A stretch of DNA of 64,000 nt, from positions 607 to 64,606 of IMG/VR virus record IMGVR_UViG_3300042562_000678, one strand, 5' to 3'. The position numbers and the translations under genes are program-made. Numbering within the stretch: the stretch's first letter is position 1; every line of letters begins with the position of its first letter. The notes under the pieces are model-generated. The model had not been told where the DNA came from. It was given only the letters and a program-made list of their open reading frames with translations, and did not search any database. The stretch is from a virus (Duplodnaviria > Caudoviricetes). Shown here piece after piece: positions 14,605 through 48,511 of this stretch.

Positions 14605-14827
14605 GAAGGGGCAGGGGTTTTTTGTCCCCTGCCTTGATCTAGACGCTACCCGCGAAGAGGGCTTGCGCAAAGCCCTTCACTACCGCCTGTTTGATGCCCG
14701 TGCCGAACCCTGTGTTCGGGACGGGTTTACTGGCGTGTGGTTCTTTCGGATTGTTTATAAAACCGCTCCGCAATCTTGTTCTCAAAGCGCTTCAAGCGAT
14801 CCAGGCGCTCGTCCTTCTGAGCCGTAG
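14564..14827 (+). CDS. small conserved protein (YPW..L..G.GFFVPC)
   Basis: ATG14564; YPWARLEKGQGFFVPC...GVWFFR; 3' end overlaps the giant gene in antisense. Confidence 0.6.
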   Translation: MKKLRINYPWARLEKGQGFFVPCLDLDATREEGLRKALHYRLFDARAEPCVRDGFTGVWFFRIVYKTAPQSCSQSASSDPGARPSEP

Positions 14828-17800
14828 TCAACCGGGGGTTGTCGCGGATGGCGCGTTCTTCGGAGAACAGCTCCCCCATCTCCTGCCTAAACGCCCCTGC
14901 CTCGTCTTTCATGGCTATCAGATTGCTCTGGCGCTGGGCAAACGCCCGCGCCTCGGCTCTCTGACCTTTGTTCAGCAAGCCTTCGTAAGTGTTTGAGGCC
15001 TGCACAATATCATCCATGCGTTCGTAAGCGCGGTCAATCAAGAACCGGCCTTCGGCTGAGTGGAACAAGCCGCCAACAAACGGCTGCTTGCTTGCGGGGG
15101 TAGATGCCTTCTCGCCCCCCGCTCCCGTTGCAAACACAGGGTCAAGCATGTGCAACGCGGAAATCCCCAGCATGCTGGTGTAGCTCTTTACAAAGTGCTC
15201 CAGCATCAGCGGCGACACACCCACAACCCCAGTAAACGACCCCAAAGCCTTGGCCACCTCGGTAGTGCCTGGACGATAGCGCTCCGCTGGCGCAAGCATC
15301 TTCTCGCGTTGGCTCTCTATTGGCCCAAACGCGGTCTGTCCGTAGAAAGCCTCCAACCAAGGCTTTGCGCCCACAGGCACGACTCCAGGCGCGGACTGCC
15401 ACAACAGTTTGCCGATACCCTTGATCGCTTCCGATGCCTTTGTGTCGCGGATGGCTACGTCCACTATGGCTTGGGGAATGGCCATGAACAACACGCCGAT
15501 CTCATAGGGGATGGGGATTCGCAGCGGGTCTTTTACGCCAGGGATGTACACGAAGAAGTTGCCGTAGCGCTGTTCGGGCGTAGCCAACTTGTAGGCCTCG
15601 TCGTCTTGCATCATGATGGCGTAGGCCATAGCGCCAGCCATCAGCATCATCCCACGGGCCTTCAACTTGCGCTGAATCTCCATTTGCTGGGCAAACGGCA
15701 TCTTGCCGCGCAGGGTGCGGTACAGCACGTCCAGGCCTTGAATCTGGGCGTTGAAGAACGGAACCATCGTAGACAGCATCTGCATGCTGGGCGACAACCC
15801 CCTGCGCCCAAAGTTCTGCGACTCCATTGCCACAAACTGCGCCTGGGCCTTAGACAACCCCCGCTTCAAGGCTGACTCATACACCAGCGCCCTGGTGGCA
15901 ACGTCCGCCTGCAAAGCCGCGCTGTCAATCATCCCCATCATTTTTGTCCACTTGCCTTTGCCAGACTGGATGTCCTGCAAGAACTTCTCCATGTCTTTCT
16001 CGTTGCCCGTGTAGACGTTGCTGCTGACAACCAGACCGCGCATGAGTTCGTCCTGGGTCGTGTTCTGCCCATTGCGCATCTTGGCCAACTGCCGAATTGC
16101 GTTGAGCACAGGCACGCCGTCAGTACCCGACAGCAAAGCCGCGTTGATAGGGTCTCGAATAATCTGCCGCACGGCGTATGCGGGTGAGCGGGTAATGAAC
16201 TTGCGCAAGATGTCAGCAGGCACGCCCAGCATTTGCACGAGTTGCGGCAGCGTAGTCTTGATGCCCTCCATGCCCTTGACAATTAAGTGCGCTGGAATAC
16301 CAAACGTATCCGAGTCAATCGTTGCAAAGTATGGCTTGCCCTTGACTTTGAAGTGCACAGTGTCGGCGTTGGCGGGGCCTTGACCGGGGCCGTACTTGGA
16401 CGCAAACCCCGCCTTGTACATGGCGTTGGATGTTTCGTATGCTGCCTTATTGTCCAGGGCAGCGCGGGTCAGCATATACGTGTTCTGCACAGCACTGGTA
16501 AGGATCGGCATGATCTTGGTGTTGTCCCCAATCATGCGTTGCAAATCTGGGTTGTCCTTGATGTTGCCAATCCTGATGGGGCGCTCGTCTTCTACGAACA
16601 GTTTGACCACGCCATCTTCAACGCGGTAGTACGGAGCGTAGGGCACGCGCTTCAACCGGGTAGCTTCTTCGGGGGTCAGGAAGTCGCATTGCGCCGCAAA
16701 GTCCAAAAGACCTGCGTTGTACTGGCGGTACTCCGCTGCTGCCGCATCCATATACTGTTTGACTTTGGGGTTGGCGTTCAGATACGCCTTGTCCGCATCG
16801 TACTCAGCCTTGGCAGCTTTAGCGTCGCCAGTGTTCAAACGAATCCAGCCATTGGGTATAGCTTCGGCTCTTGCACCTGCGCTCAGCACTGTGAACATGC
16901 GCTCAATGTCGTCCGCACTGCGCCCGCTGGCTTTGGTGGCTTGCTCCAGGTGTTCGCTCACACGAAGCAGGTTGGCCCCCTCAACAGACTCATAGCGGTA
17001 CTCTGTCCCGGTGGTGCGCTTGTCGGCCACGATACGAACCGGGCCGCTAGTAACAAACTGCCCCGCCGCCTGGGTCACTTTGTCTGCCATGCGCATGAAG
17101 TACTGCGCCTGGAACGCTTCAACAGAAGTCAGTTTGTCTGCGCCTTCTGCGGCCACAATGGCCGCGTCCGCTGCGGCAAGCCTGTCAACAAGCTGTACCC
17201 GACCAGCCAGCCCGTAGAAATTGCCTTTGATTTTGGCCGTGGTTGTTGGCTCATAGCCAACAATGGTGGAGGTGGGCCGTGCAGCCGCAGCGCTTCTGCC
17301 AACGCCTTGGATTGAACGCGACGGCATGTAGATGGTTTCAATCAACTCTTGCGCCCGCGTCGTCATCAACTCTTGCGTATCAAAGCCAATCAAATTCAAG
17401 AAACGCCGTATTGCACGCACCAGCATGTTGCCACGGAACCAAGGCTTTTGCTCCATCTTTGTGCGCAGGTCGTCGTTGGACTGCGCTTCCGACACAAACT
17501 CTTTCAGGTCTGCGGTTGCATACTCGCCTTCAAACTTTTTATCGCCTTTGATGGCCTTGAGCATGGCCTCCAGTTCGCGCTTGGCTTGGCGCTGCAAGGG
17601 CGTCAGGTCTTTCTCCGGCATTTCGATCACGCGCATGGTGGCGGCGTGGGTAACTTCGTGCACAAGGTCTTCTTGTGTCATGCCTGCCTGGGTCAACAGC
17701 ACCGTGTTAGTAGCCGGGTCATACGCCGCAGGGTATTGCTTGCCGTCAATGGTGATGCTGCTGACAACCTGAACTTTGGTCTGTCGAACAAACTGCGCCA

Positions 17801-20800
17801 CTTTGGCTGCGTTCTCACGCAACAGCGGCGTTGCGCCGTTCTTGGCCACATCGTTTAGCGCGTAGATCAAACTGCCATCGTTGATTTCTTCAATGGCGCG
17901 GTCAGACAACTGCGTACCCAACGCAGTCTTGTACTGGGTAGGAGCCACATCGCCTTCGTCAAAGTAGAAATCGCCTACAGCTTTTTGGGAACGCGTAACT
18001 GGCGCGTTTTTATCAACGTCCTCTTCAACGGCGCTGTCGGCCTCTTGCTCCGCCGTTGCGCCTGTGCGGCGTTTTTGTTTGCTGGCTTGCTCCGCTTCCC
18101 GCATGCGGGAGATGCGTTTTTCCAGCATCTCTATGGTGTTGCTTGCCTGATCTAAAGCATCTTGCGCCACCATCACAGCGGGGCTATCCTTAACCCCGCT
18201 TTTCTCCGCAGCGGTTTCTGCTGCGTTAAGTTCGGTGCGGGCTTTATTCAAATCGGCAGTTGCTTGGCGCAAGTTTTCGCGTTGTGCAATCAGCGCCATG
18301 GACTCGTCGCTGCCAATCAAACGCTTGCCTTCTGCAAGCCGTTCCGCAATCTGCTCTTTGGTGAGCCCCTCAGTTTGCAGCGCGTACTGCGCTTGTAACT
18401 CGGCTTTGCGGTCGCCTTCTGCGGCTCTCACTTGCTTGTTCAGCGTAGCCAAACTGATTGCATTGGCCGCTTCAGGAGACAGGTCATAGCTGCGCAGTCG
18501 AACAGCTCCAGCCTGCCTTGGCGGATTCTGGCTTCCCTGCTTAACATCCAGCCCAGAACCTGTGAGCATCTGTCCTGGGGGCCTTTGGGCTTGGCGAACA
18601 AGCGGCCCCACTTTGCGTGCGCCAAGCCGCGTGCCTGCAACGACAGGTTGCGTGCCGGGCGTTCCAACCGCCGCCGCTTCTCCCACCGCAGTTGTAACGC
18701 GCTCCCCAGCAGGAAGTGCCTGGGCCAGTTCTTTCTCGTAGCGTTGAACATCGGCAGTTGCTTTTTGTACTGCGGCAACGTCATTTTTGGCAACGGCTTT
18801 TTCCAACGCCGCTTGCGACAAACCAAGCATGCGCTTGGCGTTGTTTTGCACGGCCTGTGCCAACTGCCCGGTGGTGTCCACTTCGATACGCGTGCCGGGC
18901 AGCGCGGCCAATTCGGCTGACGGGGCTTTTAAGAGTTGCTCTAAACGATCTTGACGTTCGTCGTCGGCTTTTTGTTCGGCAGTCCGATTGTCTGGCGCCG
19001 GGGTAGCGCGTTCTTTGGCCCTTGCTTTTTCCAAGTTGGCTTGGGATTTGGCCAGCCGCTCTTGCAGTTGTGCCAACACAGCGGCATTTGATTCGTTGCG
19101 TTTTGCAACCGCTGCCAACGCAGGGTCTTTTGCTTGGCGCTCAGTTTCCGCCTGTAACGCAGCCACGGCATCTGCGTACTGCTGTCGCACCCCTTTGCCC
19201 ATCTCGTACTGAAACATGAGCAAATCACGACGCGCCACTTTGTACAGCGCCACTGCTTTGGTGTGCGCAGCATCCACAGGCGTAGCTTTTTCGATAAGCT
19301 CAGCAAGTTTTGCCTCAACAACCACTGGGGCTTTTCTTGCGGTTTCGCCGTCAACCGTTGTTTCGTTTTTGGCAACCGTTTCAAACTCAGCTTTGATTTT
19401 GTCAAGGGACTTGCGCAACTCTGTAAGCTGGGAATCAACACGGTTTACCGCCAACTCATAGTCTTTGGCGGTTCTAGCCAGGGCAGCAGGTGTGTCTGCG
19501 CCCTTTGTCTGAATGAGTTTGGCCGTTGCTTCTGCTGCCTCTGCGCCCGAAAGCTGCTGCTCGGTTAATTTACCGCCGCGATAAACGTACTCGCCCAGTT
19601 CGGCTTGCAGTCGTTCCATCTCCAGCATAACGTCAACGGTCTTTTCGGGAGCAAATGTGCCGTTGGCCGCAGGGTCTAACGCTTTGACGGCGCTACTGAG
19701 CATGTCCAGTTTCTTTTGGGACTCAACAATAACGTTTGGAATAGAAGGCGTGCGTTTTATAGAGTCCGCCAATTGTTGCGCCAGTCGATTGCGCTCTCTT
19801 ACAGCGGGATTGTCTTTGTCCGTATCCCCCGCAGCCGCTTTTTGTGCACGGGCAAGCTGCTGCCGCAACTCATCAATGTCGTCAGCAACGGTAACATTTG
19901 TGGGTTTGGCTAACCGATCAGCCGCTTTGACCAAGTTTGCTGCACGGGCCATTTCTGCCGCAGCTTTGGCAACTTCCGAAGGCTTGGCTTCTTTTGTTTT
20001 GGGGACAGACTCGATTCCCCAACTTGCTTTTTTCGTGGGCTTTGTGCGTAACTTACCCGCAGCAGTGCGATACCCTGCGCCTGCCATCAAACGACCCGCT
20101 TCGCGCTGTCCAGGGGTTGCGCCAGTAATAACGTCTTGTTGTTGCTCGTATGCTCGTTGGCGCTTTTCCAACACATCCAGCTTTTCTTTAGCGCGGGTCT
20201 GTTCTTCCTGTGCTTTTTCCAGACGCACTTGCAGTTCTTTGGGGATGTTGCCCGTGGTCTTTTTAGCTGCCTGGGCCATGTTGGCCATGTTGAGCAGCTT
20301 TTTAACCTGTGCTGGAATTGCTTCGTAATAAGCCCGTTGACGATCGTTTGTGTAGGGTGCAGCCGCTTGTTTAAACCCTGCTGTAGCGCCGCCAAAAACC
20401 TGCGTTTTGTTTTCGTAAGTGGTTTGTAGCTTTGTGGCCAAGTCACGCAGCGCTTTACCACCGTCGCTGTCAGTGGCAGACAGCGCTTTGCGCAAACTCT
20501 CAATCAGGTTCTGCGTATCCACGTACTTGGTACGGGCTGCGTCCAACTCATCTTTTGGAACTTCTTGCTTGACTTTAACGTACTGCGCCAAGCCAAACTG
20601 CGGCAGTGTTCTCTGGTCAGGAACATCCGTGCCCGTGGTGTTCAGCGCATCATCGCGCTTTGCTCGGTTAGACCAGTAAAGATTCTGCAACTGGTCGTCG
20701 GTCATTAAAGACCCTTGCTTGCGCAAACGGTCAATGAACTGCTCCAATGTGGGCACGGACTCCTCGGTAGCATCCGCCACTCGCTCGGCCTCGCGTGCTT

Positions 20801-23800
20801 GCGCAAACGCGGCGTAGCGCTCATTCACACGCCCCTCGGTGCGGCCAAGTTGTTCAGCCAGGTCGTCTATCTGCTTGTCCAGTTCTTTAAGCCGCCCGGT
20901 TGGCAACTTAGAAAATTTATCCAGCAGTTCTTGCAACTGCGGGGTGCTGGCCGTTTGGTTTCTGCGGTTTTGTTCTGCAACCAACGCATCGCGCTCGTCC
21001 ATCAACCGTTGCAAACGCTTTTCTTGTGGGCCTAATTCTTTTCGCGCTTCTTCCAACGGGCCAAACAAATCCCCAGTAGTGGGTTCTTGTTCTTTGGCTT
21101 TGTACGCGGGTTGTTCCAACGACACCAAGCGGTCGTAGGCTTTGCGCAAATTGTCGTTTTCTTTTTGAAGAAAGCTGCGTTGCTCTTTGAGCGCATTCAG
21201 TGCGTTGAGTTTTTCGCCTTTGGGTTTGCCCGCCCGTTTGATTTGGTCGTTAAGTGACGCGAGCAACCGTTCGTTATCCCGCAGTTCTTGAGCGAGTCTT
21301 TGTGCCGACTCAATGGGAAGCTCTTTAGCTTTCTGCGCTTTTTGAAGTGTGGATTTGGGCGCCGCAATGCTTCTACGTTCGCCGTCAACAGTTTCAAAAC
21401 TTACTGTTCTGGTTTTGCCTTCTTCGGTCTTCAGTGCACCCGGCAATAAACGATCCAACAAGTCGGCAACGCGCTCGTCAGTTAAATCTTCCAGAGATTG
21501 TTCGGGAGCAGCACGGCGGCGCTTCTCACCAATGGCTATGCGCTTTTCTACATCTGCCAACGATTCCCTGGCCGTCTCCAACTCTTTGGCTACGTCAGAC
21601 TTAACGCGCATCCCCGGCGCGGCTTCGGGTGTGCTCTCTTCAATGAGCTTTGCAATCTCTGGCTCAGTCAGTCCTGCCGTCAGAATGTCGTACAGCTTCT
21701 TAATCTTGGCTTTCTTCTGCCCTTTGGCCGCGTCCAGTTGCTCTTGAATTTTGAGCAACGACTGGCCGTACACATTTTGTGGAAATTCTTTTTTGGGTAC
21801 CGCGCCAGCAGGCGTGGGGGGTGTTATTCCCAGTGCCCGGTTCTTGATAGCTCCAAGGTTGCTTAAAAACGCTTTGTCGTCGGCAACAATTGACAGATCA
21901 ACAGGCGCTTGTTCAAGCTCCGCTTCAAGTTCTCTGACACGTTTGCTGAGTTCGCGGTACTGCTTGTCCCTGTCATCCTGGTAGCGCAAGTTGTCAGGTT
22001 CTTTTTCAAGCTTGGCCCAGTCTTGCTCTTTTTTTGCAAAACTATCACGCAGCTTCTTTGCTTCTTCTAAGCGCAACTGTGCCAGTGCTTGCTGCGCAGG
22101 GCTTTGCCCACGCCGTTGTGTCATGCGTTCAAACGCTTGCAGCTCGGCTTCTACTTTTTTGCGGCCAGCAGCAGATTGCTCACGCCCCTGCGCCATGGCT
22201 TCAGCAAGTGCTTTGTCCACGGTAATTTCAGGATACTCAAAGCCAAACAAATCTGCTTGCTCGGGCTTGTATGAAACTTCACCTGCCTCAGTGACACGCT
22301 GCTTTTTAGCACCCTCAGTAAACAACTCAGGGCCAATACGCGATTCAAGGTCTCTTATCTGCGGGGCCAGCTTCAGCACGCGTTCAGCGTCCCCCAACTG
22401 GCGGGCAGCATCGAGGTCTGCTGTCAGCTTTTTAAGTTTGGCTTTGTCTTTATCCAGTCCCGCAGGAGCAGCTTCCACAAACGGCTCATAGGCTTGCAGT
22501 TGTTCCAACGCCGCCTTGTGCTGCATTACCGTGTTGGCATGGCGCTCAACGTCTTGTGTGCTGGTCGCGTTGACCATCTTGTCTTGCGCGTCTTTTAAGA
22601 AACGCTCAAGCCCTGTCTGGGCGCTGGTCAAATCCGCACGGCTGGGGAGCAACGGAGCCAAAGATTCCTGCAATTGATTACGCTGGTTGCCAAGTTCTGC
22701 AACTTGCTGCATGTTGCCTGTTTTTTGTGCAGCAGCAATCTGGGTGTCCAAAGCCTGGATGCGCGGCGCTAAAGCCTGAATCTGGGCCAAAGGCGACCGG
22801 TCTTTGACTTCGGGAGCTTCAAATAACTGGGCCTGGGCACCCTTGGTTTGCATGCCCTCACGGGTTTGCTGTTCAAGCTGGCGCTGCTCTTGCCGCGCTT
22901 GTAAGCGCTCACGTACTCCAGGCTGGCGGTACTCATCCACCAGTGCGCGGGTTTCATCAGAGTTGACCAGTTCTTTGCGTGCGGTACGCGCTTCTTCGTT
23001 GTCGGCCTGGGCAACCAGATCGCCTTTGGCTGGCTTGACTTTGAGCTTGTCGTCCAGCGTTTTCATCTGCGCAATGAATGTGCCGTAGCGCTGCTCAAGG
23101 GTGTCCAGGTACTCGTCAGTTTTGCGGTACTCCGTTTGTTCGGCTTCTTGCTGCGCTTTGACCTGCTCTTGCTGGGCCACGGCAGCGGCTTCTTCTGTGC
23201 GTTGGCGCTCGGCCACGATGTCTTTGGCCGCACCCTTCTCGTACAACCGCCCTGCGGCACCAAACGGGGCCAGTTTGGAGACCTGGAACGCCGTCTGCCC
23301 ATACTCAGTCAGTGCGTCTTGGTCAACCAAAGACAGCCCGGCCTGAGCGCGTTCGATCATTTGCTGCGCAACTTCGGTCGGGATTTCCGCCAATGCACCA
23401 ACTGCGGTGCCCTTGGCCAAACTCTTGACCAAACTTTCTTTGGCCAAGTTTTCCGCGCCTTTTTCTGCGCCTTTGGCCAGCATGCGCTCGACGTTTTTGC
23501 CAAATACTGCACCTGCCAACGACCGTCCCAAGGGGATGAAGGTGGCGGCTACATCCAACGCAGCGGCGGGGACTGCGGACAACGCCGCAGTTAAGCGGTT
23601 GACATCCACAGGTTCGCCACGGGCTTTTTGTTCTTCGGCTTGGCGCTCTAAGAAACCGCCGTACATCTGGGTAAAAGACGGGGCGACGGCACCAGTAATT
23701 GCTCCGGGTAGACCGCCAAATGCGCCGCCCACACGCGCTGCCCCAATGGTTGCTGCCATCTGGGGGGTTTGCTCTGCCAATGCAGCAGGGACTTGGCTGA

Positions 23801-24176
23801 TGTATTCGCCAATCGCGGGGAAGATACCGCGCTCTTCATACGCCTTCTTGACCTGTTCAAACCCAGGCTGCTCGGCGTACTTCTCACCCAGTTTTTCTCT
23901 GCGGCCAAGCCCCGCCTCAACGGCAGCGTTACCGCCAAGCAAAGACTCAAGGCCTGTGCGTACCGAGGAGATGGGGGCTTCGACCCCCATGCCTAAAGCG
24001 CCAGCAATACCACCAATGGGTGTTTGACGGGGGCCAGTCTTTAACCCCAGCTTGGCATCAAACTCTTTGCGAGAGATGTCGGAATAGAATTTTCCATATA
24101 GCGCATCCGCAAGCGCCGCATCAGACAGATCAGAGTACTGTGGATACTGCTCACGAATTTCAGCTAGTGTGGCCAT
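14727..24176 (-). CDS. giant internal virion / polyvalent protein (zincin motif, LPD38-like C-terminus)
   Basis: 3149 aa; N-terminal IREQYPQYSDLSD motif of DNA-transfer proteins; long coiled coil; LVHEVTHAAT; C-terminal PFFNAQIQG...RIPIPYEIG. Confidence 0.85.
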   Translation of the reverse strand: MATLAEIREQYPQYSDLSDAALADALYGKFYSDISRKEFDAKLGLKTGPRQTPIGGIAGALGMGVEAPISSVRTGLESLLGGNAAVEAGLGRREKLGEKYAEQPGFEQVKKAYEERGIFPAIGEYISQVPAALAEQTPQMAATIGAARVGGAFGGLPGAITGAVAPSFTQMYGGFLERQAEEQKARGEPVDVNRLTAALSAVPAAALDVAATFIPLGRSLAGAVFGKNVERMLAKGAEKGAENLAKESLVKSLAKGTAVGALAEIPTEVAQQMIERAQAGLSLVDQDALTEYGQTAFQVSKLAPFGAAGRLYEKGAAKDIVAERQRTEEAAAVAQQEQVKAQQEAEQTEYRKTDEYLDTLEQRYGTFIAQMKTLDDKLKVKPAKGDLVAQADNEEARTARKELVNSDETRALVDEYRQPGVRERLQARQEQRQLEQQTREGMQTKGAQAQLFEAPEVKDRSPLAQIQALAPRIQALDTQIAAAQKTGNMQQVAELGNQRNQLQESLAPLLPSRADLTSAQTGLERFLKDAQDKMVNATSTQDVERHANTVMQHKAALEQLQAYEPFVEAAPAGLDKDKAKLKKLTADLDAARQLGDAERVLKLAPQIRDLESRIGPELFTEGAKKQRVTEAGEVSYKPEQADLFGFEYPEITVDKALAEAMAQGREQSAAGRKKVEAELQAFERMTQRRGQSPAQQALAQLRLEEAKKLRDSFAKKEQDWAKLEKEPDNLRYQDDRDKQYRELSKRVRELEAELEQAPVDLSIVADDKAFLSNLGAIKNRALGITPPTPAGAVPKKEFPQNVYGQSLLKIQEQLDAAKGQKKAKIKKLYDILTAGLTEPEIAKLIEESTPEAAPGMRVKSDVAKELETARESLADVEKRIAIGEKRRRAAPEQSLEDLTDERVADLLDRLLPGALKTEEGKTRTVSFETVDGERRSIAAPKSTLQKAQKAKELPIESAQRLAQELRDNERLLASLNDQIKRAGKPKGEKLNALNALKEQRSFLQKENDNLRKAYDRLVSLEQPAYKAKEQEPTTGDLFGPLEEARKELGPQEKRLQRLMDERDALVAEQNRRNQTASTPQLQELLDKFSKLPTGRLKELDKQIDDLAEQLGRTEGRVNERYAAFAQAREAERVADATEESVPTLEQFIDRLRKQGSLMTDDQLQNLYWSNRAKRDDALNTTGTDVPDQRTLPQFGLAQYVKVKQEVPKDELDAARTKYVDTQNLIESLRKALSATDSDGGKALRDLATKLQTTYENKTQVFGGATAGFKQAAAPYTNDRQRAYYEAIPAQVKKLLNMANMAQAAKKTTGNIPKELQVRLEKAQEEQTRAKEKLDVLEKRQRAYEQQQDVITGATPGQREAGRLMAGAGYRTAAGKLRTKPTKKASWGIESVPKTKEAKPSEVAKAAAEMARAANLVKAADRLAKPTNVTVADDIDELRQQLARAQKAAAGDTDKDNPAVRERNRLAQQLADSIKRTPSIPNVIVESQKKLDMLSSAVKALDPAANGTFAPEKTVDVMLEMERLQAELGEYVYRGGKLTEQQLSGAEAAEATAKLIQTKGADTPAALARTAKDYELAVNRVDSQLTELRKSLDKIKAEFETVAKNETTVDGETARKAPVVVEAKLAELIEKATPVDAAHTKAVALYKVARRDLLMFQYEMGKGVRQQYADAVAALQAETERQAKDPALAAVAKRNESNAAVLAQLQERLAKSQANLEKARAKERATPAPDNRTAEQKADDERQDRLEQLLKAPSAELAALPGTRIEVDTTGQLAQAVQNNAKRMLGLSQAALEKAVAKNDVAAVQKATADVQRYEKELAQALPAGERVTTAVGEAAAVGTPGTQPVVAGTRLGARKVGPLVRQAQRPPGQMLTGSGLDVKQGSQNPPRQAGAVRLRSYDLSPEAANAISLATLNKQVRAAEGDRKAELQAQYALQTEGLTKEQIAERLAEGKRLIGSDESMALIAQRENLRQATADLNKARTELNAAETAAEKSGVKDSPAVMVAQDALDQASNTIEMLEKRISRMREAEQASKQKRRTGATAEQEADSAVEEDVDKNAPVTRSQKAVGDFYFDEGDVAPTQYKTALGTQLSDRAIEEINDGSLIYALNDVAKNGATPLLRENAAKVAQFVRQTKVQVVSSITIDGKQYPAAYDPATNTVLLTQAGMTQEDLVHEVTHAATMRVIEMPEKDLTPLQRQAKRELEAMLKAIKGDKKFEGEYATADLKEFVSEAQSNDDLRTKMEQKPWFRGNMLVRAIRRFLNLIGFDTQELMTTRAQELIETIYMPSRSIQGVGRSAAAARPTSTIVGYEPTTTAKIKGNFYGLAGRVQLVDRLAAADAAIVAAEGADKLTSVEAFQAQYFMRMADKVTQAAGQFVTSGPVRIVADKRTTGTEYRYESVEGANLLRVSEHLEQATKASGRSADDIERMFTVLSAGARAEAIPNGWIRLNTGDAKAAKAEYDADKAYLNANPKVKQYMDAAAAEYRQYNAGLLDFAAQCDFLTPEEATRLKRVPYAPYYRVEDGVVKLFVEDERPIRIGNIKDNPDLQRMIGDNTKIMPILTSAVQNTYMLTRAALDNKAAYETSNAMYKAGFASKYGPGQGPANADTVHFKVKGKPYFATIDSDTFGIPAHLIVKGMEGIKTTLPQLVQMLGVPADILRKFITRSPAYAVRQIIRDPINAALLSGTDGVPVLNAIRQLAKMRNGQNTTQDELMRGLVVSSNVYTGNEKDMEKFLQDIQSGKGKWTKMMGMIDSAALQADVATRALVYESALKRGLSKAQAQFVAMESQNFGRRGLSPSMQMLSTMVPFFNAQIQGLDVLYRTLRGKMPFAQQMEIQRKLKARGMMLMAGAMAYAIMMQDDEAYKLATPEQRYGNFFVYIPGVKDPLRIPIPYEIGVLFMAIPQAIVDVAIRDTKASEAIKGIGKLLWQSAPGVVPVGAKPWLEAFYGQTAFGPIESQREKMLAPAERYRPGTTEVAKALGSFTGVVGVSPLMLEHFVKSYTSMLGISALHMLDPVFATGAGGEKASTPASKQPFVGGLFHSAEGRFLIDRAYERMDDIVQASNTYEGLLNKGQRAEARAFAQRQSNLIAMKDEAGAFRQEMGELFSEERAIRDNPRLTTAQKDERLDRLKRFENKIAERFYKQSERTTRQ

Positions 24177-43964: not shown

Positions 43965-45017
43965 TCAGTAGAACTCGTCCATCATTTGGGGAACAGCTTG
44001 CTGCCCACCAAACCCTCCACGCCGCCCTTGCAACATCGACGCCAAGCCTTGCAGCCCCATTTGCCCACCGTAGCCACCGCCCATGCGGCCACCATAACCG
44101 CCGCCGTAGCCACCACGACCGCCGCCGTAGCCACCGCCACCACCGTATCCGCCACGACCGCCGCCGTATCCGCCACGACCGCCAAAATCAGGCATGCCCA
44201 TCCTGTTGTCTATGCGGGGGCCGGGAAGCTGCCGTTGCATAAAGTCACCAATACCGATTTCTGAAGCCACCTGCTCTGAGCCGGGTTGCTGTGGCATTAC
44301 CGCAGCCCGCATGTCACCTTGGGTAGCTTGGTCTCGCTGCATCTGGTACATGTCCTGTTGGGTAGCCTGCTCGTACATCCGCTGTTGCCGAGCTTGGTCT
44401 TGCATGTTCCGCTGTTGCTGCATCTGGTCAATGTTGCCGTATGGGTTTTGCCCCATCTGTCCTTGTTGTCCTTGCGGCTGTTGGAACCCGCGCAGCTTGC
44501 CCTGCAAGTCTTGCAACTGCTGGTACATGGGCGCTTTCTGCATGTACTCGTTCATCTGACGACCAAGGTCTTGCTCCTGCTTCTGGTACGCCTGGAAGTC
44601 CGGGTTGTTCATGTACGAGGGCTGCTGGCCCATTGGTTGCGGCATCTGGTTGGGAGCGCCAAGTTGTCCCATTTGCTCCCCGACCTCGCGCCCCATTGAG
44701 CGATAGTCTTGCTGTTGCCCCATTTGTTGCTGCTGCTGAAACTGATTCATCCCATAGCCGGGACTGGACAGGGCCCCCATCCCACCAAACGGGTTTTGCA
44801 TCTGTTGCATGCCATACGGCTGTTGTTGCTGCATGCCAAACGGCTGGGGCTGCGCAGACGCGTTGCCCATACCCCCGCCTTGGTTCTGAGAACCAAAGTT
44901 GGACATGTACGGTTGCGCGTAGGAGGGGACACCCCCGCCCGGCTGCGCCGATGCGTTGCCCATGGGTTGTTGCCCCATGCCGCCTGAACCGCCTACACTT
45001 CCTGCTCCGCCTGCCAT
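43965..45017 (-). CDS. Gln/Met/Gly-rich low-complexity protein with RGG/YGG tail
   Basis: 350-aa ORF that fits exactly between its neighbours (TAATG coupling). Confidence 0.7.
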   Translation of the reverse strand: MAGGAGSVGGSGGMGQQPMGNASAQPGGGVPSYAQPYMSNFGSQNQGGGMGNASAQPQPFGMQQQQPYGMQQMQNPFGGMGALSSPGYGMNQFQQQQQMGQQQDYRSMGREVGEQMGQLGAPNQMPQPMGQQPSYMNNPDFQAYQKQEQDLGRQMNEYMQKAPMYQQLQDLQGKLRGFQQPQGQQGQMGQNPYGNIDQMQQQRNMQDQARQQRMYEQATQQDMYQMQRDQATQGDMRAAVMPQQPGSEQVASEIGIGDFMQRQLPGPRIDNRMGMPDFGGRGGYGGGRGGYGGGGGYGGGRGGYGGGYGGRMGGGYGGQMGLQGLASMLQGRRGGFGGQQAVPQMMDEFY

Positions 45018-45250
45018 TATCGGTACCCCGCTGTTTTCTTCGCAATGCTTTTGGGTTGCGCCACAAACTGTTTACCTGCCGCTTTACCCGCCCGCTTGGC
45101 CTTGGTAGTGGCAGCGTACTCAGAAGGACTGAGCGCCTTGATTGCCGCTTCTGGCAAATACCGCTCCCCCGTCTTTGACGAAGGCTTCCCCGACTTGGTG
45201 CGCCACTTCTGATCGCCCCAGTTTTTAAGGGAAGTCTGCGGTGCTTTCAT
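45017..45250 (-). CDS. DUF5872-like protein, C-terminal half
   Basis: SLKNW..QKWRTK...ERYLP...KQFV. Confidence 0.6.
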   Translation of the reverse strand: MKAPQTSLKNWGDQKWRTKSGKPSSKTGERYLPEAAIKALSPSEYAATTKAKRAGKAAGKQFVAQPKSIAKKTAGYR

Positions 45251-45372
45251 TCAAAGTCTTCAGCGGTCAAACCAGCATCTTCAAGTGCCAACTCTTCTAA
45301 AATTTCGTCCGTGCCACAAGTGCAAGGGCCATCTTCCATCACGGCGCAATCGTCCATATGTCTTTTAATCAC
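45247..45372 (-). CDS. small Cys/His acidic protein
   Basis: GGAGGAGG SD before GTG; HMDDC...CTCG. Confidence 0.5.
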   Translation of the reverse strand: MIKRHMDDCAVMEDGPCTCGTDEILEELALEDAGLTAEDFE

Positions 45373-45640
45373 GATAACCTCCTCCAGCCGCCTTGTATTT
45401 CTTGGCGACAAGTTGTGCTTTACGGGCTGACCATTGCCCCGCGCCCGTGCCATGAGTTGCTGCGGCTTTTACCTGAGACACAATTCGCTTGCGCAAACTG
45501 GGCTTGGTGTAATTGCCAGCGGCATTGACTTTCCCGCCTTCTTTGTACTGCTTGAAGTCGGTGTCGTCACGGCGTTCTTTTCGAACGCCCTTGGGCATTT
45601 TGGATGGGCTGATGTCGCCCATCCCGCGTGAGGCCATCAT
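45365..45640 (-). CDS. DUF5872-like protein, N-terminal half
   Basis: NYTKPSLRKRI...GQWSARKAQLVAKKYKAAGGGY. Confidence 0.6.
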   Translation of the reverse strand: MMASRGMGDISPSKMPKGVRKERRDDTDFKQYKEGGKVNAAGNYTKPSLRKRIVSQVKAAATHGTGAGQWSARKAQLVAKKYKAAGGGYRD

Positions 45641-45641
45641 C

Positions 45642-46007
45642 TCAGCACTTGCCGCCAGACTTCATGCCCAGGGGCTTGGAGCCAGCCATCTTGACCATGG
45701 TGCCCTTGGTCTTGCCTTTGGTGGCAATGCCGTCACGGCTGGGTGCGCCAGTCTTGACGCTGCCCATTTTGGCGGTGGTGATGCCACCAGACGCCATTTT
45801 CTTCGTGCTCATTGCTTTTTTCTTAGCAATCATTTCCATGAAAGGGTTCGCTTTAGCCATATCACCACCTCTTTTAAAAGACTTGCCTTTGTCGGCGTTG
45901 CTGAAATCTTTGCCCACAGACTGCGGGACTCCTACCTTCTTGGCAAACGATGGGTTGTTGGCCACCGCAGCCATGAAATTGTGCTGTTTCTTACTTGTTG
46001 ACGGCAT
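45642..46007 (-). CDS. small basic protein
   Basis: MPSTSKKQHNFMAAVA...; DGIATKGKTKG; three xxGG motifs. Confidence 0.65.
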   Translation of the reverse strand: MPSTSKKQHNFMAAVANNPSFAKKVGVPQSVGKDFSNADKGKSFKRGGDMAKANPFMEMIAKKKAMSTKKMASGGITTAKMGSVKTGAPSRDGIATKGKTKGTMVKMAGSKPLGMKSGGKC

Positions 46008-46179
46008 CTTTATACGCCCACCGTTGTACGGTATCCGTTTCCCAGATGCGGATAACCATCCATACGATGGTCAACACGCCGCCAATAAGCGTTACCACGG
46101 GCGTCATCCACCCTAAGAAACCCCCAAGGCCCATTACTACGGCAGCGCCGTCAGCCATTGTTTTTACGTCATGGTTCAT
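45991..46179 (-). CDS. small membrane protein (holin-like)
   Basis: Two hydrophobic stretches then IRIWETDTV. Confidence 0.6.
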   Translation of the reverse strand: MNHDVKTMADGAAVVMGLGGFLGWMTPVVTLIGGVLTIVWMVIRIWETDTVQRWAYKDAVNK

Positions 46180-46180
46180 G

Positions 46181-46435
46181 TCAACACTTCCAAGCCCGCA
46201 GGCTCTTGTTAATCCGACTGTTTGGGTCTTTGGCTGTTTTTTCGGATGTGAGTTTTTTCTTCATCCCAGTCATCCTTGCACAGAAAGAGTCGCGCCTGCT
46301 GCCGCCCTCTGGCTGCGGTGCTTTCAACCCCGGCTTGCCGGGATTGGCCTTGTTGTAGGAAGCCCGACCCTTGGCGTTCAAGCCGCCCTTCTCGGATTTG
46401 CCTTCCTTGCGTTGCCATGCTGGAGATTTAGCCAT
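46181..46435 (-). CDS. small basic protein (DUF6321-like)
   Basis: AWQRKEGK..GGLNAKGR...SFCARM...SLRAWKC. Confidence 0.65.
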   Translation of the reverse strand: MAKSPAWQRKEGKSEKGGLNAKGRASYNKANPGKPGLKAPQPEGGSRRDSFCARMTGMKKKLTSEKTAKDPNSRINKSLRAWKC

Positions 46436-46709
46436 AGAAAATTGTAATTTTTGCCGTTGCAGGCAGGGTTACGTGTATGTCGGAGTAGAACAAAATGCCT
46501 TCTCCGGGGATTGGCAAACCAAACGCTACCAAATTGGTAGAAATATTGAACTGCAACCGAATAGTTCCCGATGCGCCACCATCCCTGATGATTACATCGC
46601 CTGCCGTGCCGCCAGAAAGACACTGGTAGCCTTTAAGACGGGTGCGCTGCGACACCAGCGTGCCTGTTGCTTCCGTGTGCGCTGCTTTTACGTCTGTTTG
46701 CATCGTCAT
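46428..46709 (-). CDS. structural hypothetical protein
   Basis: MQTDVKA...IPGEGILF...TIFYG. Confidence 0.65.
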   Translation of the reverse strand: MTMQTDVKAAHTEATGTLVSQRTRLKGYQCLSGGTAGDVIIRDGGASGTIRLQFNISTNLVAFGLPIPGEGILFYSDIHVTLPATAKITIFYG

Positions 46710-46710
46710 G

Positions 46711-46863
46711 TTATTGCTCCGGTTCTGGTGCGTCTAACCTGTTTATAAGCATCTTGTACGCTTGGATTGTGGCTTGAGATTGAATCAAAAAGGTTTGGGC
46801 TTTTTGGGCTTCAGTCTCAAGGTCACGAATCTCAATCTCCAAGAATTCCTTGGTGATCTGCAT
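46711..46863 (-). CDS. small coiled-coil protein
   Basis: Read manually: MQITKEFLEIEIRDLETEAQKAQ...; fills the gap exactly. Confidence 0.55.
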   Translation of the reverse strand: MQITKEFLEIEIRDLETEAQKAQTFLIQSQATIQAYKMLINRLDAPEPEQ

Positions 46864-46864
46864 A

Positions 46865-47443
46865 TTAGCTGTTTGTTGTAGTCAACATGATGTAATACGC
46901 AGTACCAGCGCTGTCCACAATCTTCAATGAGTTTGTAGCTGCGCCCTGTGTATTGGCAGTAATCATGCCAGATGGAACGTTAAACAAGTTGGCCACTGTG
47001 CCAGTGCCGCTGTTTGTGAAGCGGATGAAAGAAGCATTTGTCCAAGTGCCACCAGAGGCAAAGTTAGAGTCAGCTTGAATAGCTGCAATCGTACCGCCGG
47101 GGTTTGTGGATGTGCCGCCCAAAGTAGCGCGAAGAGCGTTACCTGCACCGGAGATAGTGCCAGAGCCGTTGATGCTCAAGCTGATGTGAGCACCGTTAAC
47201 AGTACCGCCAGTAGCTGCGCCAACGCCTGTGACTTGAGTCAAAGCACGGTAAGTTTCACCAGAGCCAGTTGATGTAAAAGCCAAACGCTGATAAGACAGA
47301 CGTGTATCGCCAGTAGTGGCAGATGTGGTGACGTAAGACTCAGATACATTAGTAGCGGTAGTCTCAACGATGGGGGAAGAAGCTGTTCCGGTAATGAAGC
47401 CATTGTTAGATATGACTGGGCCGGAGAACGTGGTATTTGCCAT
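46865..47443 (-). CDS. putative capsid decoration / fibre protein
   Basis: MANTTFSGPV N-terminus; Thr/Gly/Ser-rich; directly after the capsid gene. Confidence 0.65.
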   Translation of the reverse strand: MANTTFSGPVISNNGFITGTASSPIVETTATNVSESYVTTSATTGDTRLSYQRLAFTSTGSGETYRALTQVTGVGAATGGTVNGAHISLSINGSGTISGAGNALRATLGGTSTNPGGTIAAIQADSNFASGGTWTNASFIRFTNSGTGTVANLFNVPSGMITANTQGAATNSLKIVDSAGTAYYIMLTTTNS

Positions 47444-47449
47444 GATATG

Positions 47450-47524
47450 TCCTTACATGCAAGTGGGGCGTATCTGTCTGCATGTCGTCAGCCGGGACTG
47501 TCAGATACACCGGGAACCCCGGAA
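47450..47524 (-). ncRNA. structured pseudoknotted 5' leader (cis-regulatory candidate)
   Basis: 9-bp stem GUGUAUCUG/CAGAUACGC plus 7-bp pseudoknot ACAUGCA/UGCAUGU abutting the AAGGA SD. Confidence 0.55.
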
Positions 47525-47531
47525 TAGTTGC

Positions 47532-47560
47532 AATATACACCAAAAGAAAAAGGGGCACAA
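47532..47560 (-). promoter_or_regulatory. putative sigma70 promoter embedded in the terminator
   Basis: TTGTGC-17-TATATT on the minus strand. Confidence 0.5.
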
Positions 47561-47571
47561 GGCCCCTTTTT
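47542..47571 (-). terminator. intrinsic terminator after the major capsid gene (bidirectional type)
   Basis: Minus strand AAAAAGGGGC-CTTGT-GCCCCTTTTTCTTTT. Confidence 0.85.
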
Positions 47572-47581
47572 CATAGACACA

Positions 47582-48511
47582 TTAAGCGCCTGCGGAACCC
47601 CACATGCCGAGGGGATCAGACCAGCCGAAGCTGTAACGCTCACGAGCCTTGTAACGGACGTTGCCGGTATCAAAGTCGCCGTCCATCGAGTTAGCCAGGG
47701 GCATACGCTCGAAATGCTTCATGCCGTTGGGAACGTCGGTAATCAAATACCAGCCATTCGAATCGGTCAAGAAGTGGTTGACGCAGTAGCCTTCAGGAAT
47801 CGCACCCATCTGCTTGATAGCGTTGATGTCGTTATCAGCAGTAGAGACGCGCAGTTCAGTGTCAAGCAAACGCTTGGCAACGAACATCAGCGCTGGGGGG
47901 ATGACCATCTTGCGGGGCTTGGCAGCGATCAACAGACCACGCTCATCGGTCCATGCAGCGATTTGAATCACGGCATTTTCCAAGGAGGTCTCGTTCAAGT
48001 CCACGCCAGTGGTGGGGCTGTTGAAGTTAACAGCGCCATTAACCAAGGGGTGGCCAACACGAGTGCTGGAGCTGTTGTTACCGAACAAGGTCACGCCGTC
48101 ACCACCCAAGTACGAACCGTTGAAACCGTTGTTGATAACGGAGGCGGCTTTAACTTGCTTGGTGTAGGACATCGCACGGGCCAGGGCTTTGGTGTAACGA
48201 GCAGACAAGGAGTCATACAAGTTATCTTCCACAGCTTCCTCGGTGATCGAGAAGCCCAGGGCGATGGTTTCGTGGTTGTAACGGGCGGTGAACGCTTCTT
48301 GTGCGTTGTCATACGCGATGGCGGAGCCCTCGTTCTTGACAGGAGCAGCACCGAAACCAGCAAGCTTGGTCTCTTCTTCGAAGCTACGCTCTGATTTCTC
48401 AGTTTCGTAGATTTCTTTGTGCTCTTCGCCGTAACGAGCGTATTCCAAACCGAACAAAGCGTTCAGACCAGGGAGCAACTCTTTAAGTAGTTGTGCGCGT
48501 GAAATTGCCAT
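47582..48511 (-). CDS. major capsid protein
   Basis: MAISRAQLLKELLPGLNALFG...GDFDTGNVRYKARERYSFGWSD; followed by a strong terminator; highly biased codon use. Confidence 0.88.
   Translation of the reverse strand: MAISRAQLLKELLPGLNALFGLEYARYGEEHKEIYETEKSERSFEEETKLAGFGAAPVKNEGSAIAYDNAQEAFTARYNHETIALGFSITEEAVEDNLYDSLSARYTKALARAMSYTKQVKAASVINNGFNGSYLGGDGVTLFGNNSSSTRVGHPLVNGAVNFNSPTTGVDLNETSLENAVIQIAAWTDERGLLIAAKPRKMVIPPALMFVAKRLLDTELRVSTADNDINAIKQMGAIPEGYCVNHFLTDSNGWYLITDVPNGMKHFERMPLANSMDGDFDTGNVRYKARERYSFGWSDPLGMWGSAGA

Follow-up and report, generated by a model that had tools for sequence, protein, structure and literature searches.

Pseudoknots in the leaders of messenger RNAs have been described for cellular genes and for phages. 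In Escherichia coli the pseudoknots of the rpsO (S15) and alpha-operon (S4) leaders include or abut the Shine-Dalgarno sequence (SD) or the start codon, sit on the platform of the 30S subunit and gate initiation, and the alpha-operon leader is also a double pseudoknot. In the preQ1-I, preQ1-II and SAM-II riboswitches the 3' strand of an H-type pseudoknot runs into or right up to the SD. In T4, gp32 nucleates at the pseudoknot of the gene 32 leader and spreads over the unstructured region of the ribosome-binding site (RBS). A catalogue from 2023, which lists 10,006 structured RNA candidates of IMG/VR, describes this T4 element as a phage 5'-leader pseudoknot upstream of the RBS that acts in translational control (PMC10690425). 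A further conserved phage element is the Mu-gpT-DE RNA motif, RF03012 (PMC7657543). Here we analysed a leader of about 82 nt in front of the first gene behind the major capsid protein (MCP) gene of the virus IMGVR_UViG_3300042562_000678. This IMG/VR record holds the complete genome of the virus (64,606 nt); the 64,000-nt stretch under study (positions 607 to 64,606 of the record, hereafter the window) spans nearly all of it. Coordinates are those of the window, and the features described in it lie on its minus strand. Comparison with related phages indicates that the leader is a double pseudoknot at the SD and a strongly conserved element in a large group of uncultured lake phages.

The leader shares with Mu-gpT-DE that it is a conserved RNA of phage or metagenome DNA located where a Mu-gpT-like major head gene ends. 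However, the Mu-gpT-DE model has 53 positions, whereas the leader is about 82 nt long, is led by a promoter, forms a double pseudoknot and ends at the SD. Across the whole genome the RF03012 model scored 7.2 bits (E 5) at best, away from the leader and short of its 49-bit cut-off, and in the region 46800-48000 the model gave no match at E <=10. In contrast to the T4 gene 32 leader, the leader studied here is a double pseudoknot that touches the SD, and no binding protein is known for it. It differs from the preQ1 and SAM-II riboswitches in having no covariance-model match, no metabolic context and an extra helix between the 5' strand and a hairpin loop. The rpsO and alpha-operon leaders are unrelated in sequence, respond to ribosomal proteins and belong to cellular genes; S1 and rpsO are treated in PMC7038950. 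HDV-like, twister and pistol ribozymes were rejected as relatives because their helix order differs, as compared by reasoning, and no Rfam model of them matched.

The initial annotation of this DNA had assigned the leader to no named Rfam family, and this held in a covariance-model scan with Rfam 15. The region 46800-48000 gave nine matches at E <=10, all far below the gathering scores and located on the terminator or within the MCP gene, and 20 related loci (112,387 bases) gave no match at the gathering score. The available part of PMC10690425 names candidates upstream of GP20, GP32, terminase and major capsid protein genes, none of them like the leader described here. Since a narrow core pattern of the leader occurs in at least 120 stretches of IMG/VR, the source data of that catalogue, the leader may be one of its unnamed clusters. 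We found no description of the motif in the literature, although one may be contained among the candidates listed in the PMC10690425 supplements. Judged from the comparative evidence below, the leader is a new RNA family, absent from Rfam, of a known kind, namely a cis-acting leader at the SD.

Predicted fold and its covariation

The leader begins about 57 nt past the MCP stop codon (47584-47582) and ends at the AAGGA SD. Its central helix P1 is formed by the 5' arm GGUGUAUCUG (47502..47511) and the 3' arm CAGAUACGCC (47467..47476); the pairs 47510-47502 with 47476-47468 proposed in the initial annotation were recovered, and G47511-C47467 lengthens the helix to 10 bp. P1 encloses an A (47501) that is invariant in alignment A1, which comprises 65 distinct leaders, followed by the inner hairpin h (47489..47500), with CAG at 47500-47498, the loop UCCCGG at 47497-47492 and CUG at 47491-47489. 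The junction A-C-G (47486..47488) leads into the single strand ACAUGCA (47479..47485), and a G-A junction (47477..47478) precedes the P1 3' arm. AC is present in 82/84 leaders and C47487 is invariant in A1, as is the G-A junction, which 80/84 leaders retain. The strand ACAUGCA is the 5' arm of the pseudoknot helix PK, and its 7-bp complement UGCAUGU (47455..47461) directly adjoins the first base of the SD (47450..47454); the ATG start codon (47443-47441) follows. This pseudoknot lies where the initial annotation had placed it. A second one had been overlooked: the 5' strand a, CCGGGG (47517..47522), pairs as CCGGG(G) 47522-47517 with the hairpin loop (U)CCCGG 47497-47492, here called a'. The hairpin h had been described as CAGU-CCCG-GCUG; it is real, but has three supported pairs rather than four, with its loop engaged in a/a'. 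The pseudoknotted leader is thus conserved and more complex than first proposed, and its predicted fold, a/a' together with PK, is a double pseudoknot.

The evidence for this fold is comparative. A search of IMG/VR with the MCP yielded 80 loci with 80-96% MCP identity, and the DNA read behind the MCP stops of these relatives showed the same leader with visibly compensating changes. Pairs were counted on three alignments, with partners slid out of place as control: A1, A2, which was fitted to P1 and h only, and A4, which was fitted to a/a' and PK only (73-86 sequences in A2 and A4). In A1, 89.1% of the cells were paired as compared to 24.6-42.3% after sliding, and 20 of 24 pairs showed double changes. 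The corresponding values were 91.6%, 20.7-44.1% and 22 of 24 pairs for A2, and 89.5%, 25.5-40.4% and 23 of 23 pairs for A4. Covariation in P1 and the pseudoknot, which had been suggested as a check, was therefore found on all three alignments.

Each helix contributed to this result. The a/a' helix was paired in 88.3% of cells in A1, 95.5% in A2, which was not fitted to it, and 99.5% in A4. Double changes affected four to five of its five pairs, the pair types include CG, UA, GC and AU, and the variants comprise CUCGG/CCGAG, CCAGG/CCUGG, CCAAG/CUUGG, CCUAG/CUAGG, CUAGG/CCUAG and CUGGG/CCCAG. P1 was paired in 94.7-98.8% in A1 and A2, which were fitted to it, and in 93.3% in A4, which was not; all nine counted pairs carried double changes. 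Hairpin h was paired in 100% in all three alignments, and its middle pair was AU in 39, UA in 35, GC in 7 and CG in 3 sequences of A4. Moreover, RNAalifold independently predicted P1 and h. At one P1 position a U-G pair occurred in 24/86 sequences of A4, and as this would be C-A on the opposite strand, the folded molecule is the minus-strand RNA. PK reached only 70.6-84.4% on the alignments, as clades differ by 1-2 nt in its register. Parsed sequence by sequence, all 84 leaders contain a PK of 5-9 bp, as compared to a mean of 4.3 bp for shuffled tails. The six core pairs of PK all showed double changes, and the 84 leaders contain 29 distinct 5'-arm sequences, among them ACAUGC, ACAUAC, UCAUGC, ACGUAC, ACAAGC, AUGCAA, UAGUAG and CCUCAA, each with a matching 3' arm. 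The linker from a to P1 measures 5-8 nt in 73/84 leaders and that from P1 to PK 4-7 nt in 71/84. Such short linkers fit a compact shape, with the two tails lying alongside P1 and pairing at its top.

Strand a has a second possible partner. A proximal strand b, CCCGG (47510..47514), can form a local 5' hairpin with CCGGG 47522-47518, and this hairpin competes with a/a' because both use strand a. It corresponds to the 5' CCGG...CCGG hairpin of the initial annotation, which is present in the window but proved to be an alternative arrangement of strand a that only part of the group retains: a proximal a-b helix of at least 4 bp was found in 65/84 leaders and was missing in 19/84, while a' was kept in all. 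The a-b hairpin was paired in 84.3% of cells, with double changes in three of five pairs, and a, b and a' change jointly (CCGAG/UCGG/CUCGG; CCAGG/CCUGG/CCUGG). Nearest-neighbour estimates gave -6.9 kcal/mol for the a-b hairpin and -9.7 kcal/mol for the a/a' duplex, with tertiary and loop costs ignored. Two mutually exclusive states would be expected to leave such a pattern, and they could represent a folding intermediate or a switch. The U-rich linker between a and b was also considered as an anti-SD and dropped, since it is weak in the window and cannot covary against an almost invariant SD.

The initial annotation had placed the end of PK immediately at the SD, and this was confirmed across the group. 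In 76/84 leaders the SD overlaps the 3' end of PK or lies within 1 nt of it: the overlap is at least 3 nt in 9 leaders and 1-2 nt in 41, and a gap of 0-1 nt is present in 26 and of 2-5 nt in 8. The distance from the end of PK to the AUG is 9-14 nt in 71/84. In one clade PK is CCUCAA/UUGAGG, a full pairing of the SD/anti-SD kind, while in the window the SD is unpaired in the proposed fold. Three divergent loci were read by sequence within the first ~130 nt past the MCP stop, all of them unsupported by covariation. L088 keeps P1, PK and the SD, carries a UAAC tetraloop that caps h and has no a/a'; L105 has a short 4-bp P1 whose 3' arm overlaps AGGAG. In L001, the phage Pag-Yong1 (OL906435.1), a different GC-rich hairpin presents in its loop the exact 8-nt complement of the SD (CCGUCUCC / GGAGACGG). 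The property that recurs across these variants is a structure on or beside the SD.

Occurrence in related phages

We searched for the leader with two models, of which R1 knows only P1 and h and R2 only the two crossing helices. R1 found a single copy in the window (99.5 bits; next match 12.3 bits, E 2) and one copy each in 72/81 related loci, so that the leader is conserved in homologous regions. The nine loci missed by R1 comprise five contigs that end too soon past the MCP or past the start of an inserted gene, the loci L035 and L037, which R2 recovered, L041, which has a different gene behind the MCP and gave no match, and L001, the distant cultured-phage record Pag-Yong1. With R2 the leader was found in 86/100 sources. 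In addition, R1 matched 20/36 MCP-bearing contigs of metagenome-assembled genomes (MAGs) at E <=1, 17 of them at E <0.001.

The position of the leader was examined at 79 loci among the core-pattern matches listed, 11 of which are contigs already in the set. A relative of the MCP ends less than 200 nt upstream in 60/79 and 200-1600 nt upstream in 15/79, and 3/79 have too little upstream DNA, which places the leader behind an MCP in 75/76 assessable loci. The only leader that does not follow a recognisable MCP (L150:2900-3005, +) lies behind a 599-aa open reading frame (ORF) that has neither a PHROG match nor a terminator, and it precedes a GFATHLGPW-type protein (MTFASRLGAW...).

Near-identical DNA of the phage was present in 14 lake or freshwater metagenome runs with 14 study codes; the source sample may be among them. 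Near-complete genomes of the group (contigs of 50-64 kb, L083-L118) occur in MAGs labelled with many phyla, including Methylopumilus, Microbacteriaceae, Nanopelagicales, Bacteroidota, Caulobacteraceae and Cyanobium. These mixed labels probably reflect mis-binned phage DNA and are unreliable as host calls.

Promoter and predicted transcript start

Directly behind the MCP terminator the initial annotation had described the hexamers TTGTGC (-35-like, 47555..47560) and TATATT (-10, 47532..47537) with a 17-nt spacer, and both are present. Promoter geometry predicts a transcript start at A47525, 7 nt past the -10 hexamer, which would leave about 3 unpaired nt ahead of strand a; this A (A12 of alignment A1) is conserved in at least 90% of A1. 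The window promoter agrees with the consensus at 8/12 positions, and a consensus scan did not list it. We therefore rely on the relatives, in which the DNA upstream of 86 leaders provided 84 distinct regions. A promoter with at least 8/12 positions at the fixed place was found in 71/84 of these, as compared to 4.2% of 4200 places drawn at random from these loci. The hexamers have the geometry of a sigma-70-type promoter, 16-18 nt apart and at a fixed distance from the leader: the -10 is TATATT in 45/84 and TATAAA in 11/84, a TTG-type -35 stands 16-18 nt upstream of it, and strand a begins at a conserved distance from the -10. A promoter word shared with other genes of the phage was not recovered: TGTATATTG gave six matches with one mismatch allowed, which equals chance expectation.

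The -35-like hexamer of the window lies within the loop and the 3' stem of the terminator, and the description of a promoter hidden in the terminator is thus true for the window, but the arrangement is not general. TTGTGC inside the terminator loop with 17-nt spacing was found in only 19/84 regions, window included. Other forms of the -35, TTGACA (14/84) or TTGCAN, lie outside any terminator and occur where the terminator is farther off or a gene is inserted. Moreover, the promoter remains with the leader where a homing-endonuclease gene parts the leader from the MCP terminator. Promoter, leader and start codon thus move as a unit. The overlap of terminator and -35 is a local compaction in this phage and its nearer relatives that does not define the element.

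The terminator loop CUUGU(G) (47557-47561 in the window) is conserved in relatives in which it doubles as the -35, which suggests selection on the loop for promoter function; relatives with the -35 elsewhere mostly have terminator loops of the UUCG type. Many relatives carry an inserted gene precisely in the gap that separates the MCP terminator from the leader promoter. In L007 (3982-4809, +) it is a homing endonuclease with GIY-YIG and NUMOD3 domains (Pfam E 3.1e-10 and 1.4e-6), in L003 the same site holds a 202-aa ORF without Pfam match, and inserted genes were also seen in L008, L009, L016, L027, L061 and L064 as well as in 15/79 of the core-pattern loci checked. The junction between MCP terminator and promoter looks like a hot spot for homing-endonuclease insertion.

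Proposed function of the leader

Taken as a working model, a host sigma-70-type promoter behind the MCP terminator would start a new transcript from about A47525, whose first ~82 nt would fold as a double pseudoknot in which the 10-bp P1 encloses hairpin h together with a single strand. The h loop would pair with the extreme 5' strand and the single strand with the 3' tail, the last PK base touching the SD of the first post-capsid gene. Located within the 30S landing site, the folded domain may set or gate initiation, and in some relatives it would sequester the SD. In most relatives b would be a second, mutually exclusive partner of the 5' strand and thereby give rise to two states, between which a trans factor (a phage protein, the ribosome or S1, a small ligand) or the folding pathway might select.

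The leader probably controls how much of the post-capsid protein is made. We favour a cis-acting translational operator, at about even odds, because the last strand of PK abuts or overlaps the SD in 76/84 leaders; that it affects translation is inferred, and so is any effector, in nature as well as in existence. It might also set the stoichiometry of the post-capsid genes, as the initial annotation had suggested. Several observations weigh against this view or narrow it. The window sequence alone is unremarkable: its nested minimum free energy is -24.3 kcal/mol with z = 0.29, 120/200 shuffles are at least as stable, and the nested structure takes the PK helix in place of P1, so that the evidence beyond chance is comparative. 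The sequences compared are related, which makes shuffle controls overstate significance; a sounder basis is given by the slid controls and by the variety of pair types. As the SD is unpaired in the window fold, the folded leader may nevertheless be permissive for initiation or even promote it. Switching is not universal, given the 19/84 leaders without b and the variant L088 without a/a'. The conserved unpaired bases are few, namely A47501, A47488-C47487 and G47478-A47477, which makes a weak case for a small-molecule pocket. Finally, the downstream products are very different and one set lacks the shared N-terminal motif, so that autoregulation by the encoded protein is unlikely. A shared factor such as the MCP, another late protein, S1 or the 30S subunit, or a ligand fits the invariant junction better than autoregulation does.

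A translational operator has to be weighed against a constitutive element. The leader might be a 5' stabiliser or a translation-promoting leader whose buried 5' end resists 5'-end-dependent decay and whose SD is free beyond a rigid domain, with neither switching nor an effector. This would agree with strand a beginning about 3 nt past the predicted start at a conserved distance from the -10, with the unpaired SD of the window fold, with the 19/84 leaders that lack b, and with a transcript that starts directly behind a terminator and whose 5' end is new and exposed. However, a simple 5' hairpin is enough in known stabilisers such as the ompA leader, and four covarying helices, invariant junctions, the joint variation of a, b and a' and the CCUCAA/UUGAGG pairing with the SD would be left unexplained. 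We consider this account fairly unlikely, but worth keeping in mind.

A bolder form of the operator would be a new class of effector-sensing switch in which b and a' compete for the 5' strand. It might sense a signal of late infection (free capsid protein, another phage protein or a small ligand) and couple capsid assembly to the synthesis of a fast-evolving virion surface protein. We propose this tentatively and regard it as unlikely as it stands; if true, such a switch would operate in a very abundant group of freshwater phages.

Whether the signal could be a metabolite or an ion that stabilises the double pseudoknot and alters access to the SD is a narrower question. A PK 3' strand at the SD is typical of the preQ1 and SAM-II classes, and the leader has both invariant junction nucleotides and an alternative pairing. 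Nevertheless, no Rfam riboswitch model matched, only about five unpaired bases are conserved, the regulated gene is variable, of virion type and without metabolic link, and the variant L088 drops an entire helix. A small-molecule riboswitch is improbable on these grounds.

Besides, a nascent leader may act on RNA polymerase, as in processive antitermination of the HK022 put kind, in which the RNA modifies the polymerase for read-through of terminators in a late operon. The leader stands directly behind a promoter at the head of a long minus-strand late block, and a terminator-like hairpin follows the variable gene in many relatives. In the window, however, there is no terminator after the 192-aa gene, and within 44000-47440 of the minus strand we found one weak terminator-like site (46540-46526). 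Furthermore, strict adjacency of PK and SD has no role in such a mechanism, and put RNAs are two plain stem-loops and not a double pseudoknot, which renders a put-like function very improbable. Accidental complementarity, or a signal at the DNA level (for instance inverted repeats bound by a protein), would be in line with the ordinary single-sequence folding energy, but can be dismissed in view of compensatory changes in 22-23 pairs across 73-86 sequences, crossing helices, G-U pairs valid only on the minus-strand RNA and 29 distinct PK arms, each with its partner.

The leader is a well-supported structured RNA with an unusual topology, since both tails of a hairpin fold back onto the hairpin loop and an alternative pairing is built in. 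It offers a compact test case for pseudoknot folding beside an SD. The leader would show where the post-capsid transcription unit begins in phages without a cultured host and could serve as a handle on late-gene control. In addition, promoter, leader and start codon together provide an annotation marker for an otherwise unrecognisable gene family.

Neighbouring genes and genomic context

The ATG at which the leader always ends opens the first post-capsid gene (46865..47443), which encodes 192 aa with a conserved N-terminal part of about 16 aa and a variable remainder. Among relatives, 69 full-length products of this position measure 75-331 aa and fall into at least 10 clusters. These have in common only the ~16 N-terminal residues, of the TTFxGPVxSxNGF, GFATHLGPWLLGT and STFEGPILSG types, and one product set, LSTTQSIWRSGGG, lacks the shared motif. 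The 192-aa protein had no match in PHROG, Pfam or a tblastn search of phages, and its best hit in the PDB had an E of 0.37. An AlphaFold2 model from a 10-sequence alignment gave no confident fold (mean pLDDT 42.6). In the ESM Atlas the protein matched only viral clusters of the 'hypothetical protein' kind, with a sub-threshold lead to Phage_cement_2 (0.78) over 46% of one cluster. A conserved N-terminus with a variable remainder is typical of virion proteins that have an anchor and a fast-changing exposed part. From this pattern and the position of the gene, our reading is that the product may be a head-surface or decoration protein.

Downstream of the 192-aa gene of the window the following ORF begins after 1 nt, and no hairpin lies in between; as no terminator stands behind this gene, the unit continues into the late genes that come next. 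In many relatives (for example L006, L010, L014, L021, L031 and L032) the variable gene is directly followed by a conserved GGGGCTTCGGCCCC hairpin, behind which come a T-rich stretch and AGGAGATTGATTATG, the start of the next gene (MTMQTDV...). Where these relatives carry the GGGGCTTCGGCCCC hairpin, the window has a 50-aa ORF.

Upstream of the leader lies the MCP gene (47582..48511; 309 aa), identified as an ORF with matches to the PHROG major head protein phrog_371 (E 5.1e-17) and to the Pfam families Phage_capsid_4 (E 2.2e-11) and Mu-like_gpT (E 4.5e-5). Just 3' of its stop codon a G+C-rich hairpin and TTTT form a textbook intrinsic terminator (47546..47572). The core GGGGC-CUUGU-GCCCC pairs GGGGC 47566-47562 with GCCCC 47556-47552, is lengthened by A/U pairs and leads into a U-tract to 47542; in total the hairpin has 11 pairs, 6 of them G-C, a 5-nt loop and the tail TTTTGGTGTA. 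In most relatives a terminator hairpin likewise lies upstream of the promoter. Contigs of RNA libraries (4 runs) cover the MCP gene and the leader, although contigs cannot show start, strand or level. The downstream gene is covered in one of these runs, by a contig (X15, 1851-nt record, 46687-47496). Among the contig pieces listed none bridges the MCP gene and the leader, a negative that carries no weight. No tRNA genes were found in the genome, which encodes a large terminase, a family-A DNA polymerase and a polyvalent protein of 3149 aa. The ORF of the latter (14727-24176) contains a C-terminal LPD38 'large polyvalent protein' domain (E 1.1e-27) and closes the late block as a giant multi-domain protein of virion type.

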